Source: a virus (Duplodnaviria > Heunggongvirae > Uroviricota > Caudoviricetes). From it: DNA of 5,813 nucleotides. A program made the translations under genes and the position numbers. Below the pieces are notes generated by a model. It did no database searches. It was not told where the DNA came from and saw only the letters and a program-made list of their open reading frames with translations. The stretch's first letter is position 1. Each line of letters starts with the position of its first letter. Where the stretch lies: IMG/VR virus record IMGVR_UViG_2690316152_000004, positions 1-5,813 of that record; one strand, written 5' to 3'. This document shows, in pieces, positions 527 to 5,779 of this stretch.

Positions 527-602
527 TGGTGGCCCTTGCTGGATTTGAACCAGCGACCTGGCGATTATGAGTCGCTCGCTCTCACCACTGAGCTAAAGGG
601 CC
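527..602 (-). tRNA. tRNA-Ile2 (anticodon CAU, lysidine type; formally CAT, so Met cannot be excluded from sequence alone)
   Basis: Reverse complement is GGCCCTTTAGCTCAGTGGTGAGAGCGAGCGACTCATAATCGCCAGGTCGCTGGTTCAAATCCAGCAAGGGCCACCA, 76 nt, with a perfect 7-bp acceptor stem, anticodon loop CTCATAA and T-loop TTCAAAT. It is closely similar to E. coli ileX/ileY-type tRNA-Ile2 as I recall it, not to elongator or initiator tRNA-Met. Confidence 0.88.
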
Positions 603-651: not shown

Positions 652-1701
652 TCAAACGATTAAATCCTGAACTTCCCTGACTGTCTGCTCAAAACGTTCA
701 GTCTCCAGCTCAACGCCAATTGCACGACGCCCGAGCGCCAGTGCCGCTTTTACCGTTGAACCTGAGCCCATAAAAAAATCTGCAACCAGGTCACCCGGAC
801 GACTGCTTGCGCTGATTATCTGCTGCAGCATTTCTGCCGGTTTTTCGCACGGATGTTTCCCGGGATAGAACTGCACCGGTTTATGTGTCCACACATCCGT
901 GTACGGCACCTGCGCCGTCACACCAAAATACCGCCGCAGATGCTTATATTCACTCTGCAGCTCCGCATACTGTCGGTTCAGAGAGGCATACGTATCCACC
1001 AGCTGGTGGTGGGGCTTTTCCAGTTCACCCCGCTGATGCTTCTCTTCTGCCACCCGGGCAAACAGTGCCTGTAATTTCAGATAATCGCTTTCGTTCGGCA
1101 GCTGCCACTGACCGGCACTGAACCAGTGCGACACCATGTTTTTCTTTCCTGTGGCATCTGCAATCTGTTTTGCCGTTATCCCCAGGACAGCGCGCGCATC
1201 ACGAAAGTAAGCAATCAGCGGGGCCATCACATGCTGTTTCAGTGCCCTACCCTTCGCCTCATACCCGGCATCTTTCGGACGATACGGCCCCTGATAATGC
1301 TCTGCGAACAGAATGCGCTCTGTGGCGGGGAAATACGCCCGCAGGCTTTCCTTGTTGCACCCGTTCCAGCGTCCGGACGGCTTTGCCCAGATGATATGGT
1401 TCAGCACGTTAAACCGCTCACGCATCATGATTTCGGTGTCAGATGCCAGACGATGGCCACAGAACAGGTAAAGACTTCCGGCAGGTTTCAGCACCCGCCA
1501 GAACTGCGCAAGACACTGGTCCAGCCACTTCAGGTAATCTTCATCACCCGCCCACTGGTTATCCCAGCCCTCGGGTTTCACTTTGAAGTACGGCGGGTCC
1601 GTGACTATCAGGTCAACAGAATTTTCGGGTAACGACCGCATAAATTCCAGGCAGTCGGCGTTGATTAACTCACAACTGGATATTTTTACAGTATTAAGCA
1701 T
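652..1701 (-). CDS. Orphan DNA N6-adenine methyltransferase, beta class (349 aa)
   Basis: ATG at 1701 and TGA at 652. Motif IV DPPY lies near the N-terminus (LIVTDPPYF) and motif I FxGSGS near the C-terminus (FFMGSGSTVKAA), the beta-class order. No restriction endonuclease gene is adjacent. Its position between Q and the tRNA genes matches prophage-encoded methylases. Confidence 0.85.
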   Translation of the reverse strand: MLNTVKISSCELINADCLEFMRSLPENSVDLIVTDPPYFKVKPEGWDNQWAGDEDYLKWLDQCLAQFWRVLKPAGSLYLFCGHRLASDTEIMMRERFNVLNHIIWAKPSGRWNGCNKESLRAYFPATERILFAEHYQGPYRPKDAGYEAKGRALKQHVMAPLIAYFRDARAVLGITAKQIADATGKKNMVSHWFSAGQWQLPNESDYLKLQALFARVAEEKHQRGELEKPHHQLVDTYASLNRQYAELQSEYKHLRRYFGVTAQVPYTDVWTHKPVQFYPGKHPCEKPAEMLQQIISASSRPGDLVADFFMGSGSTVKAALALGRRAIGVELETERFEQTVREVQDLIV

Positions 1702-2290: not shown

Positions 2291-2833
2291 TTATCGAAAT
2301 GAATCGTGCATAGGTACATAAAGCATGTGTTCAGCCACGGCTAACCAACCTGCAATACGTTTCTCACATGTGCTGAAACACCATTCCGGGTGAGTACGAT
2401 TTAAACATTCTGCCATTTTTCTCTTACTCATTCCCCGTCCTTCGTACCTTTGCCGGAGAATATTGATTAGCCCGGGATATTCCCCAAGCACCTCACTGAT
2501 AACGCGATCAATAATCAACGCCTCTGTGTCTGTACAATGTGACAACCAGCTCTTCTGCTTCCCTCTGGTCATATCCCGAAAAAATGCCTCAAGTTCCGGT
2601 TTTTCCAGCCCGGATTTCTTCATGCTGCGTAAAACCTCATTAACTGCTGTTTTCGTCAGCTTTTTCGAAACCAGTAACCGGTTAAACATATTTCCGGATT
2701 TATCCCCACCGATATACGACCACCGCCCCCACATCCGTAATTTCCCCTGGATCCAGACTGCTTCCAGCGTGTTCAGGCGTAAATGTTCGCCGCTTTTGCC
2801 TGTAATTTCCGGATATATCATATTTACGCTCAC
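2291..2833 (-). CDS. Putative late-gene antitermination protein Q-like (180 aa)
   Basis: It lies immediately downstream of rusA with a GTGA stop/start overlap, and an alternative ATG is at 2821. It is followed by an intrinsic terminator, the classical Q to tR' arrangement. The N-terminal WGRW motif (LRMWGRWSYIGG) resembles the WGAW motif of Q21/QuuD-type antiterminators. The family call is from memory and position, not a search. Confidence 0.6.
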   Translation of the reverse strand: MSVNMIYPEITGKSGEHLRLNTLEAVWIQGKLRMWGRWSYIGGDKSGNMFNRLLVSKKLTKTAVNEVLRSMKKSGLEKPELEAFFRDMTRGKQKSWLSHCTDTEALIIDRVISEVLGEYPGLINILRQRYEGRGMSKRKMAECLNRTHPEWCFSTCEKRIAGWLAVAEHMLYVPMHDSFR

Positions 2834-3189
2834 TCACTCTCAATTTTGTAAATCTTCACACCCAGCCGTCCACCAGATACTGGCTGACCACGTACAATAT
2901 TGATTTCATCAAACTGCTCATCGTCCATTAGCACCCCCGCATGCGTCAGCGCATCCAGCGGCGCTTTCAGAATATTGTCCAGGTCACGGCGGCGCTTATC
3001 CGGTGGCTCGGCAATAATCTTTATCGCCAGCCTTCCGGACAGGTTTAATTTCAGCCGCTGCTGGCGAACAATAAGTGCCACATCCCGGCGATAACGCTCA
3101 CCGGCTTTTGATACAAAATATGTGCTGCCACGACGTCGCCAGTAGGTGTTCACCGTCGGCGGGTAAGGCAAAACAAACTCTATACGCAT
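2830..3189 (-). CDS. rusA: Crossover junction endodeoxyribonuclease RusA (Holliday junction resolvase), 119 aa
   Basis: ATG at 3189 with SD AAGAGG about 7 nt upstream; TGA at 2830. The translation carries RusA hallmarks (PPTVNTYW, DKRRRDLDNILKAPLDALTHAGVLMDDEQ), matching the remembered E. coli RusA motifs PDRRRRDLDN...DAL...DD. Confidence 0.92.
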   Translation of the reverse strand: MRIEFVLPYPPTVNTYWRRRGSTYFVSKAGERYRRDVALIVRQQRLKLNLSGRLAIKIIAEPPDKRRRDLDNILKAPLDALTHAGVLMDDEQFDEINIVRGQPVSGGRLGVKIYKIESE

Positions 3190-3201: not shown

Positions 3202-4125
3202 TTACCCGAGCACGCCGGTTGCAAAGGCGTGATCAAGAAAACGAAAAATTAAATCAACCTGGGAACCATGCTTTTCTTCGAACGCCAGCGGATCCGCATG
3301 AAGCTCGTTGTGATGCTCCCGACACAGCGGTAGCGTGAAAATATCGTGGGATTTTGTTCCCATTCCGCCCTGACCATGACCAATCAGATGATGAGGATCG
3401 TCCGCTGGCTTACCACAACACGCACACGGCTGTGTCTTTACCCAGCGTGTGTATTTCTCATTTACCCAGCGGCGACGTTTAGGTCGTTTCATGAAGGATT
3501 CCGGAGACTCCGGATCAACGGCAATGCTTACCACCGTCTTTTCCTGTGGCGGGTTTTGCTGGTGGGCGTGAGGCAGCGGCGCAAGATTTTTTGTGCGCTG
3601 TTTCAGGATGCTGGTGGCTGTCTGTTCTCCCGGTATGATGTCGCTTTCGCGGTACACCGAGCGGATTTTTTCCGCACGTAACCCCAGAGAACGACGTAAT
3701 GCTGCCTCTGGTAGCGCATCCGCCACCTGATTGCAGACCGCCCACCAGGATAATTCACCCAGAGATAATTCCCGCTCCTGCGTGCCATTCATTGCATGGC
3801 GTATGACGTCAATCATCCATGCTGACAAATTTTGGTGAGCAAGTTGCCCGAGTGATTCGGAGGTCTGGTCACGCAACTGGTTGTCGCAGTGCCAGCACAA
3901 CACCATTGCGCCGGTACCATAACGGTGAATGACAGTTTCGCTGTGGTGATAATCGCCGTGTGGCCACTGGCAGGATTTAATATGGCGCAACAGCCAGTCA
4001 GACAATGCACCAGCACCACCAGCAGCACGAATCACTCGTTCGTCGCTGAAAAATGGCAGCAATGTTTTGTCTTCCACCAGCGGATGGCGAACGGCAGGAA
4101 CGACCCCGGACGGCAGATTACGCAT
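3202..4125 (-). CDS. ydfU: YdfU-like DUF968 protein with HNH-type Cys/His motifs, downstream copy (native C-terminus, N-terminus removed by the duplication junction)
   Basis: TAA at 3202. The first in-frame ATG after the duplication junction is at 4125..4123 (MRNLPSGVV...), giving 307 aa. The track's longer 345-aa form starts at TTG 4239 and reads the upstream copy's 3' end out of frame, so it is unlikely. C-terminal motif: CACCGKPADDPHHLIGHGQGG...CREHHNELH. N-terminal module: CQWPHGDYHH...CWHCDNQ. The YdfU/DUF968 assignment is by length, motif and Qin-like synteny (ydfU-rem-hokD), from memory. Confidence 0.7.
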   Translation of the reverse strand: MRNLPSGVVPAVRHPLVEDKTLLPFFSDERVIRAAGGAGALSDWLLRHIKSCQWPHGDYHHSETVIHRYGTGAMVLCWHCDNQLRDQTSESLGQLAHQNLSAWMIDVIRHAMNGTQERELSLGELSWWAVCNQVADALPEAALRRSLGLRAEKIRSVYRESDIIPGEQTATSILKQRTKNLAPLPHAHQQNPPQEKTVVSIAVDPESPESFMKRPKRRRWVNEKYTRWVKTQPCACCGKPADDPHHLIGHGQGGMGTKSHDIFTLPLCREHHNELHADPLAFEEKHGSQVDLIFRFLDHAFATGVLG

Positions 4126-4981
4126 GCTTTTCTTCGAACGCCAGCGGATCCGCATGAAGCTCGTTGTGATGCTCCCGACACAGCGGTAGCGTGAAAATAT
4201 CGTGGGATTTTGTTCCCATTCCGCCCTGACCATGACCAATCAGATGATGAGGATCGTCCGCTGGCTTACCACAACACGCACACGGCTGTGTCTTTACCCA
4301 GCGTGTGTATTTCTCATTTACCCAGCGGCGACGTTTAGGTCGTTTCATGAAGGATTCCGGAGACTCCGGATCAACGGCAATGCTGACCACCGTCTTTTCC
4401 TGTGGTGGGTTCTGTTGCTGGTGGGTGTGAGGCGGTAGCGCAATATTTTTTGTGCGCTGCTTCAGTATGCTGGTGGCGGTCTGCTCTCCCGGCACGATGT
4501 CGCTTTCACGGTACATTGAGCGGATTTTTTCCGCACGCCCCCCCAGCGAACGACGTAATACCGCTTCCGGTAGCGCGTCCGCCACCTGATTGCGGACCGC
4601 CCACCAGGATAATTCAGCCAAAGATAATTCACGCTCCTGCGTACCGCTTATTGCGTGACCGATGACGTCAATCATCCATGCTGACAGGTTTTGATGAGCA
4701 AGTTGCTCGAGTGATTCGGATGTCTGGTCACGCAGCTGGTTGTCGCAGTGCCAGCACAACACCATTGCGCCGGTACCATAACGGTGAATGACAGTTTCGC
4801 TGTGATGATAATCGCCGTGTGGCCACTGGCAGGATTTAATATGGCGCAACAGCCAGTCAGACAATGCACCAGCACCACCAGCAGCACGAATCACTCGTTC
4901 GTCGCTGAAAAATGGCAGCAATGTTTTGTCTTCCACCAGCGGATGGCGAACGGCAGGAACGACCCCGGACGGCAGATTACG
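3267..4981. repeat. Head-to-tail tandem duplication: two units of about 856 and 859 bp (3267-4122 and 4123-4981) inside the ydfU-like gene
   Basis: CATGCTTTTC occurs at 3267, 4123 and 4982. The units are identical for the first ~262 bp, differ at about 45 positions plus one 3-bp indel across the central ~350 bp, and show a single difference in the last ~240 bp. Confidence 0.9.
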
Positions 4982-5107
4982 CATGCTTTTCGGTTCCGGC
5001 TCCACCAGTACCCGGGTATTGTGAAATACCTGCATGGATTCACGACCTGGCTTAAGGGCCACCAGCCCGAGTTCCGGTACCAGAACAGGTCGAAGTAATA
5101 CCCGCAC
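4118..5107 (-). CDS. YdfU-like DUF968 protein, upstream copy (native N-terminus, C-terminus truncated at the duplication junction); possibly a pseudogene
   Basis: GTG at 5107 is preceded by a strong SD (TGGAGGT, about 5 nt spacing); an alternative ATG is at 5035. The protein ends ...LAFEEKHA then TAA at 4118, whereas the downstream copy continues ...LAFEEKHGSQVDLIFRFLDHAFATGVLG. Both Cys/His modules are retained. Confidence 0.7.
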   Translation of the reverse strand: MRVLLRPVLVPELGLVALKPGRESMQVFHNTRVLVEPEPKSMRNLPSGVVPAVRHPLVEDKTLLPFFSDERVIRAAGGAGALSDWLLRHIKSCQWPHGDYHHSETVIHRYGTGAMVLCWHCDNQLRDQTSESLEQLAHQNLSAWMIDVIGHAISGTQERELSLAELSWWAVRNQVADALPEAVLRRSLGGRAEKIRSMYRESDIVPGEQTATSILKQRTKNIALPPHTHQQQNPPQEKTVVSIAVDPESPESFMKRPKRRRWVNEKYTRWVKTQPCACCGKPADDPHHLIGHGQGGMGTKSHDIFTLPLCREHHNELHADPLAFEEKHA

Positions 5108-5108
5108 G

Positions 5109-5387
5109 TTACCTCCAGATCCGTTGCTGGAATGTGCGGGACGGACGCGGTGGGCGTTCGGAGTAAGGAAGCCTGACGGAGATTATCCAGTGACGGTAGT
5201 CGAGGCTGAGGGCTTTCTTAATCTCGTATCCGCGCCTGCGGTAACACTGAATCAGCCATTCAGCCTGTTCTTCGGTGCAGGGGTCGTGCTGATACCAGTC
5301 AGATTTGAATGCATGAGAACGCCGCCCGTGCCTGCTGGCAGGGGCGGCAGAGTTATCCGAATTGTAAAATTTGGTATCGTGCGCCAT
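5109..5387 (-). CDS. Small hypothetical protein (92 aa); Rem-like by position between hok and the ydfU-like gene
   Basis: The only in-frame ATG is at 5387..5385; the track start at 5516 is GTG and would place the hok terminator inside the ORF. TAA at 5109 lies 1 nt before the ydfU-like GTG. No motif recognised; the Rem assignment is by synteny with K-12 Qin only. Confidence 0.45.
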   Translation of the reverse strand: MAHDTKFYNSDNSAAPASRHGRRSHAFKSDWYQHDPCTEEQAEWLIQCYRRRGYEIKKALSLDYRHWIISVRLPYSERPPRPSRTFQQRIWR

Positions 5388-5460
5388 CTGTTTTCTCTGC
5401 TGGCGCAGCAGGTGCCAGTTGTTCAGGCTGACGGATGGATTGTAAACCAGAACGACCAGA

Positions 5461-5486
5461 AAAAACAAAACCCGCCGAAGCGGGTT
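5461..5486 (-). terminator. Rho-independent terminator downstream of hok
   Basis: Minus-strand RNA reads AACCCGC-UUCG-GCGGGUU (7-bp perfect stem, UUCG tetraloop; + strand 5469-5486) followed by UUGUUUUU (5461-5468). Confidence 0.7.
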
Positions 5487-5554
5487 AAGTGCGGGTGCGT
5501 TGAGGATGCCTGACACATCAGCGGTGGCGAGGGATTTCTCCCCCGCCTGGTCTC

Positions 5555-5710
5555 TTACTCCTCAGGTTCGTAAGCTGTGAAGACAGCGACCTCCGTCTGG
5601 CCGGTTCGGATTCGTACCTCGCAGAGGTCTTTCCTCGTTACCAGTGCCGTCACTATGACGGTTAAACAGATGACGATCAGGGCGATTAACATCGCCTTTT
5701 GCTGCTTCAT
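5555..5710 (-). CDS. hokD: Hok/Gef-family type I toxin (HokD/RelF-like), 51 aa
   Basis: ATG at 5710 with SD AGGAG about 10 nt upstream. The translation MKQQKAMLIALIVICLTVIVTALVTRKDLCEVRIRTGQTEVAVFTAYEPEE has the Hok single transmembrane helix and the conserved RKxLCE(V/I)R...G..EVA.F.AYE core, and matches my memory of E. coli HokD. The track's 64-aa form is a TTG-initiated in-frame extension. Confidence 0.9.
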   Translation of the reverse strand: MKQQKAMLIALIVICLTVIVTALVTRKDLCEVRIRTGQTEVAVFTAYEPEE

Positions 5711-5779
5711 AGCCTGCTTCTCCTGTGTAAGTTCACAGAGATATTGCAATTGCCTCCGGATAAGTAAGGGGAGATTGCA

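Follow-up and report, generated by a model that had tools for sequence, protein, structure and literature searches.

The DNA analysed here, hereafter the window, is the entire 5,813-bp contig CYBG01000068.1 of the Escherichia coli draft assembly GCA_001285145.1, which covers the nin-to-Q portion of a Qin-like lambdoid prophage with its genes all on the minus strand, and the present work concerns its DUF968 region at 3202-5107. We found that the two open reading frames (ORFs) of this region are a single ydfU-type gene broken by a partial tandem duplication, not two side-by-side family members, and that the C-terminal module of the encoded protein is a genuine zinc-stabilised His-Me finger (HNH) domain, falling in the same branch as YbcO/DUF1364, P1 Ref and PhiNM1 Gp16. 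The ydfU-type HNH protein is, in our judgement, rather likely to be a nickase or endonuclease aiding phage recombination-dependent replication or repair. Genes of the YdfU type rank with the most frequent prophage genes of E. coli and are still 'y-genes'; of 5,426 complete E. coli genomes, 4,606 contain DNA similar to the window locus, and >4,000 carry a DUF968 gene closely allelic to that of the window, which has the same family and architecture as K-12 YdfU of Qin (PF06147, PHROG 96). The HNH assignment, the RusA/Q neighbourhood and a recombination role are already published, and the value of the analysis is a sharper experimental hypothesis rather than a discovery.

A preliminary description of the window, made from its letters, had spoken of 'DUF968/YdfU-like proteins'. 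The family name held, as both ORFs match the Pfam model DUF968 (PF06147) well above its gathering cut-off of 27.8 bits (4118-5107, 329 aa, E 1.4e-68; 3202-4239, E 2.3e-76; 230.7 bits for copy A and 256.1 bits for copy B), the model spanning residues ∼157-342 only, while the plural did not, because the two ORFs are pieces of one gene:

3202-5107, minus strand: DUF968 region, two broken copies of one gene
3276-4990, minus strand: partial tandem duplication, with units 4990-4132 (859 nt) and 4131-3276 (856 nt)
4118-5107, minus strand: DUF968 copy A, native GTG start, residues 1-328, then an Ala and a stop codon from the junction
3202-4125, minus strand: DUF968 copy B, homologous frame from the ATG at 4125 (= Met42) to the native stop, 307 aa

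The stretch 3267-4714 is covered by direct repeats, whose periods are 856 and 859 nt, and the 9-bp microhomology AAAAGCATG opens each duplication unit (4990-4982, and 4131-4123 at the junction) and recurs right after the second one (3275-3267). Copy A, its frame altered by the duplication junction, ends with ...FEEKH-A-stop, so that its last 21 residues (329-349), which make up the conserved C-terminal helix with the near-invariant G329, Q331 and G346, are gone. Copy B is without the first 41 residues, i.e. the conserved N-terminal beta-strand element, and its ATG overlaps the final codons of copy A and has no canonical Shine-Dalgarno ribosome-binding site; residues 1-38 of the mechanically called ORF 3202-4239 are an out-of-frame reading of the copy A 3′-end. 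Both products being incomplete, the locus may have lost its function, and in the window contig it may be a pseudogene. The contig is thus also a caution, its apparent 'two proteins' being one interrupted gene.

A single gene encoding 348 aa (1047-nt coding sequence in H1) occupies the equivalent place in the best-matching complete E. coli genomes, the best matches among those listed spanning ∼1.89 kb versus the 2.75-kb query. When the duplication junction was sought in the 5,426 complete E. coli genomes, none was found to carry it, and the exact 329-aa copy A product occurs on the window contig only. The two units differ at 47 positions, 46 of them inside a central stretch of ∼350 nt, and the central segments of the two units are each 100% identical to a different natural allele; either recombination with another prophage has patched one copy, or the assembler, working from short reads, picked between two alleles. 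The duplication itself is probably genuine, because a 9-bp junction is unlike the product of a de Bruijn-graph error. Two 'partial' proteins of 329 aa (P0020 and P0024) were considered as instances of the same truncation and rejected, since they end with ...KHGS and are contig-end fragments. In other E. coli assemblies, one DUF968 protein (P0001) carries a different, in-frame internal tandem duplication of ∼100 aa and another single ORF (P0033) fuses DUF968 to RusA; rearrangements in or near the DUF968 gene appear to recur among draft assemblies.

The reading of the C-terminal Cys/His pattern as an HNH signature was upheld by profile, fold and conservation alike. The pattern C-x2-C...HH...C-R-E-H-H-x3-H is common to both copies:

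4154-4282, minus strand: HNH core of copy A, C276-x2-C279...H287 H288...D303...C310-R-E-H313-H314-x3-H318
3298-3426, minus strand: HNH core of copy B

Over its full length the protein matches PHROG 96, 'HNH endonuclease' (E 1.5e-174). An AlphaFold model was made for the intact allele P0005, 95% identical to copy A, from an alignment of 34 full-length relatives (26-95% identity), and reached a mean pLDDT (predicted local distance difference test) of 85.5. The C-domain in it consists of two strands (285-288 and 306-309) followed by a helix (311-319), the strand-strand-helix order of HNH nucleases, with the catalytic-type His, H288, closing the first strand and with H313 and the metal-binding-type H314 and H318 placed on the helix. 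By hhalign, the C-domain profile aligned to PhiNM1 Gp16 with a probability of 95% (E 2e-8, 44% identity over 55 columns), to YbcO with 82-85% and to Ref with 75-79%. In sequence searches, neither the single protein nor the family profile matched any entry of the Protein Data Bank (PDB), and relatives surfaced solely via fold comparison and hhalign.

Residue conservation, counted over 111 distinct relatives, points the same way. Positions H287 (108/111), H288 (108/111), D303 (111/111), H314 (107/111) and H318 (107/111) are nearly always present, and K258 is as invariant as D303; the loss of the catalytic positions had been set beforehand as refuting, and the catalytic-type His residues are kept in 107-108 of the 111 relatives. 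The structural zinc site CxxC...Cxx[H/C] of the treble-clef HNH subgroup is present as well, with C276 in 111, C279 in 105, C310 in 106 and H/C313 in 105 of the relatives.

Residue by residue, the catalytic core agrees with that of the newly characterised PhiNM1 Gp16, a RecA-stimulated HNH nickase (Nucleic Acids Research 2026, PMC12817073). The signature C-x2-C...H...C-R-E-H-H-x3-H is identical in the two proteins, and C145, C148, H157, C181, H184, H185 and H189 of Gp16 align with C276, C279, H288, C310, H313, H314 and H318. These seven zinc and nuclease-centre residues, all conserved in the DUF968 protein, include the six that have been mutated in Gp16, namely the zinc ligands C148, C181 and H184 and the nuclease-centre residues H157, H185 and H189 (PMC12817073). 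In PhiNM1, gp16 is an early gene, with a rusA gene five genes further downstream in that early region. P1 Ref (PDB 3PLW), a RecA-dependent HNH endonuclease, is structurally closest to the DUF968 catalytic core, and YbcO/DUF1364 of DLP12 (PDB 3G27), a putative nuclease, is a 96-aa stand-alone HNH core that has no N-terminal domain.

The N-terminal module, which the preliminary description had taken for a second HNH-type unit, is a real Cys/His cluster with four conserved ligands, for which the HNH-type reading found no support. The motif CQWPHGDYHH...CWHC was found in both copies:

4739-4831, minus strand: N-terminal Cys/His cluster of copy A, C93...H101...C118-W-H-C121-D-N
3880-3972, minus strand: N-terminal Cys/His cluster of copy B

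Among the relatives, C93 (111/111), H/C101 (109/111), C118 (111/111) and C/H121 (111/111) are kept and D122 and Q94 are almost invariant, while the other histidines of the cluster vary (H97 in 66, H102 in 59 and H120 in 81 of 111), and H108, which occupies the strand expected to carry the catalytic His of an HNH fold, is kept in only 10. In a separate model of residues 1-226 (pLDDT 88.6, predicted template modelling score (pTM) 0.77), C118 and C121 lie where a beta-hairpin (105-118) meets a short helix (119-125), and this local hairpin plus helix with four conserved ligands is compatible with a structural zinc finger. As neither profile nor fold ties the N-cluster to HNH, it is preferably interpreted as a structural zinc site within a domain with no recognised fold; Cys/His swaps at two ligand positions are typical of such sites. 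Aligned by hhalign, the N-module reached probabilities <1% with the C-domain, YbcO and Ref. The idea that the N- and C-modules are internal duplicates was rejected on this ground, and that of a second HNH unit is not supported, the His on the would-be catalytic strand also being variable. A Foldseek comparison of the N-domain with solved folds returned a best E of at least 2.3, no Pfam model covers residues 1-156 with a permissive scan of the N-domain giving noise only, and no match was obtained to the NinB/Orf-like structure 1PC6. The N-terminal zinc domain is the truly uncharacterised part of the family. Joined architectures, in which the N-domain is followed by tail-tip J, tail-fibre collar, glycine-rich or portal domains (P0125, P0143, P0155, P0190, P0193 and P0245), are probably chimeras from prophage deletions or misassembly, and the fusions to tail-tip, tail-fibre and portal domains were rejected as functional evidence.

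Two groups of relatives depart from the common pattern. A subgroup without the zinc cysteines (P0160, P0177, P0200, P0209, P0235 and P0238) keeps the HH...D...H residues, and a second small one (P0206, P0225 and P0240) has lost the HH pair; members of both retain the N-terminal four-ligand site.

The gene neighbourhood places the DUF968 gene in a recombination and antitermination module. In the window, the DUF968-rusA-Q arrangement is operon-like:

5109-5387, minus strand: 92-aa ORF matching PHROG 1212 (function unassigned), its stop 1 nt before the DUF968 GTG start
2830-3189, minus strand: rusA, Holliday-junction resolvase family, 12 nt 3′ of DUF968 copy B
2291-2833, minus strand: Q-like antiterminator gene (Pfam DUF1133, PHROG 753), overlapping rusA by 4 nt

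The genes are closely spaced on one strand and a scan of the DUF968-rusA-Q intergenic stretches for terminators gave no convincing one, so the proposal of one operon with rusA stood. The GGAGG ribosome-binding site of copy A lies within the 3′-end of the 92-aa ORF, and rusA has its own (AAGAGG); the rusA product scores 62.4 bits against Pfam PF05866 RusA, above the 22.8-bit cut-off. The same gene order is annotated in the prophage of the best-matching complete E. coli genomes (98.3% identity), and the window backbone hokD...ydfU...Q is that of the K-12 Qin prophage, with the difference that ydfU directly precedes ydfT in Qin, whereas in the window the gene is split and rusA is inserted between it and Q.

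That the gene sits directly upstream of rusA, as had been claimed, is true of the window but not of the family. We compared 80 loci, retrieved with an alignment of 15 closer sequences, taking one genome per species with some species giving two loci; they were mostly of Enterobacterales, with a few metagenome-assembled genome records under other taxon labels. Of the 80, 51 had a RusA homologue no more than 4 kb away on the same strand; it lay upstream of the DUF968 gene in 48, adjacent or with one ∼0.8-kb gene between, and directly downstream in only three (E. albertii, one E. coli and one Shigella). The intervening gene encodes a KilA-N protein in phage SfII, the usual order being RusA, KilA-N, DUF968, Q. 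The next gene downstream was a Q-type antiterminator in 77 of the 80 loci, usually after a gap of 13-22 nt, and fell into five groups: PF06530 (29 loci), PF03589 (17), PF06323 (11), DUF1133 (11) and a 200-aa type (9). The last of these, a protein of ∼200 aa beginning MTPRQRR (L025, L035, L042-L044, L051, L058, L063 and L086), shares its PHROG, 753 ('anti-termination protein Q-like'), with DUF1133, has no Pfam match and may represent a Q-like group not yet in Pfam. The gene context in SfII and in the K-12 prophages Qin and DLP12 is consistent with a RusA/Q module, and in DLP12 the short relative ybcO stands directly before rusA. Phage P1 encodes both Ref and a DUF968 protein, PdcB, a full-length YdfU homologue with ∼27% identity over residues 32-348 and no annotated function, whose gene (L003 2905-3948) is directly before the late activator gene lpa. 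As a general rule, the DUF968 gene is the last nin-region gene, in a module that usually also holds RusA, and the rusA adjacency in the window is a local variant of this known module.

Much of this had been foreseen in the literature. Curtis et al. (2014) noted a zinc-finger HNH motif in DUF968-annotated proteins and fusions to Erf, Rad52 and RusA (PMC4118853); Kaur and Subramanian (2016) predicted that YbcO is a nuclease and tied it to Ref (PMC4999995); and Jablonska et al. (2017) assigned DUF968 and DUF1364 (YdfU and YbcO) to group 7 of the His-Me finger superfamily, gave RusA, Q and antirepressor as their neighbours and ERF and Rad52 domains as fusion partners, and proposed a role in recombination or repair like that of NinG and the RecA-dependent nucleases (PMC5714182). 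'HNH endonuclease' is also the name already given by phage annotation pipelines and many homologue records. The description of the family as functionally uncharacterised is accordingly right as regards experiments, and has to be amended as regards the HNH assignment and the recombination role. Lambda NinG/Rap and RusA belong to the same genomic module and have the same proposed role of processing recombination intermediates (PMC5714182; PMC4118853); RusA, encoded by the adjoining gene, has an unrelated fold, and no direct sequence or fold match to NinG turned up, although none was sought.

With family membership, fold, residue conservation and gene order established computationally, nuclease activity of DUF968 proteins is predicted from their sequence, and the following scheme may be proposed. 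The AlphaFold model divides the intact protein (∼348 aa) into two domains, residues 1-225 (N-domain) and a C-domain of ∼105 aa, joined by a short disordered linker (228-241). The protein would be expressed from the delayed-early nin region running into the late-gene antiterminator Q, and would act in the same module as RusA, as a nickase or endonuclease of phage or host DNA that depends on a divalent metal, with H288 as the general base and H314 and H318 holding the catalytic metal; the N-domain would target substrate or partner, and the activity would help phage recombination-dependent replication or repair. A recombinase might stimulate it, as for Ref and Gp16, though dependence on RecA (or another recombinase), like the targeting of branched DNA through the N-domain, is a speculative analogy. 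Searches of the DUF968 protein against NCBIfam and PADLOC gave no matches, and there is thus no sign of a role in a defence system.

Several points weigh against this proposal. The N-domain is unrelated to the NinB/Orf-like domain of Gp16 and to the N-terminus of P1 Ref, which is 76 aa long, disordered and basic and has no folded zinc domain (PMC4330346), so RecA dependence cannot be transferred from either; the pTM of the full model is only 0.54, so that the two-domain arrangement is not defined by it. The match to HNHc_6 (PF16784), the Gp16 family, is 22 bits and below the Pfam cut-off of 26.6. The HH pair is missing in 3 of 111 relatives, and the zinc cysteines CxxC...CxxH are lost in the P0160 subgroup named above. 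We found in the literature no biochemical test of any DUF968 member proper, and no experiments on YdfU, the function of PdcB or another DUF968 member. P1 pdcB is non-essential (PMC10695390; PMC10067587), and any role would be accessory, as this full-length homologue can be dispensed with. At the locus itself, the duplication rests on a single short-read contig and the assignment of the central allele to a copy may be an assembly choice.

Three other explanations were weighed and are each less likely than a nickase or endonuclease. The protein could be a non-catalytic zinc-finger protein, which keeps the HNH scaffold for binding only and acts in DNA binding or in late-transcription regulation together with Q. 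The gene's place directly before Q-like genes of five unrelated sequence groups (the 77 loci above) and, in P1, before lpa would suit such a regulator, one homologue, from Arsenophonus, carries a phage transcriptional regulator annotation (PMC5714182), and the catalytic His residues are lost in a few relatives; adjacency to Q is, however, equally expected of the last nin-region gene, H288, H314, H318 and D303 each persist in 107-111 of the 111 relatives as expected of an active site, and the closest characterised relatives, Gp16 and Ref, are active nucleases, so we regard this explanation as unlikely, if the least so of the three. A free-standing selfish HNH homing endonuclease moving between related prophages is a still poorer candidate: such enzymes are frequent in phages, and the gene is mosaic, being present or absent among lambdoid prophages with the short YbcO in the equivalent slot of K-12 DLP12, but its operon position and co-orientation are fixed, its 13-22-nt spacing to Q is tight, no conserved gene is interrupted, and the large conserved N-domain persists across relatives as far apart as Enterobacterales prophages, Vibrio phages and P1, while the closest relatives are linked to recombination and are not homing enzymes.

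We give the lowest odds of all, and find it very improbable, that the protein is a terminase-associated HNH protein assisting cos or pac cleavage in packaging, like HK97 gp74. HNH proteins do aid terminases in many phages (PMC12817073), and P1 pdcB lies two genes before pacA/pacB; yet lambdoid prophages place the gene before Q and not beside the terminase gene, and in P1 the pac genes pacA and pacB are essential where pdcB is not (PMC10695390). The nickase or endonuclease thus ranks above the regulatory, homing and packaging explanations.

The remaining features of the window flank the DUF968-rusA-Q stretch on either side:

5555-5749, minus strand: hokD-type toxin gene
5486-5469, minus strand: strong terminator-like hairpin AACCCGC-TTCG-GCGGGTT plus a T run, 3′ of the hokD-type gene
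between the Q-like gene and the methyltransferase gene, minus strand: small ORF
652-1701, minus strand: N6/N4 DNA methyltransferase gene
350-426 and 527-602, minus strand: two phage-borne tRNA genes, 3′ of the methyltransferase gene

Because the hairpin falls inside a longer, mechanically called ORF (5109-5516), the 92-aa ORF at 5109-5387 is taken as the true upstream gene. Transcription past the hairpin into DUF968-rusA-Q would need read-through or antitermination. One of the two tRNAs is a tRNA-Arg (anticodon TCT), and the other has a CAT anticodon, being assigned to Met by ARAGORN while the equivalent gene is a tRNA-Ile in RefSeq.

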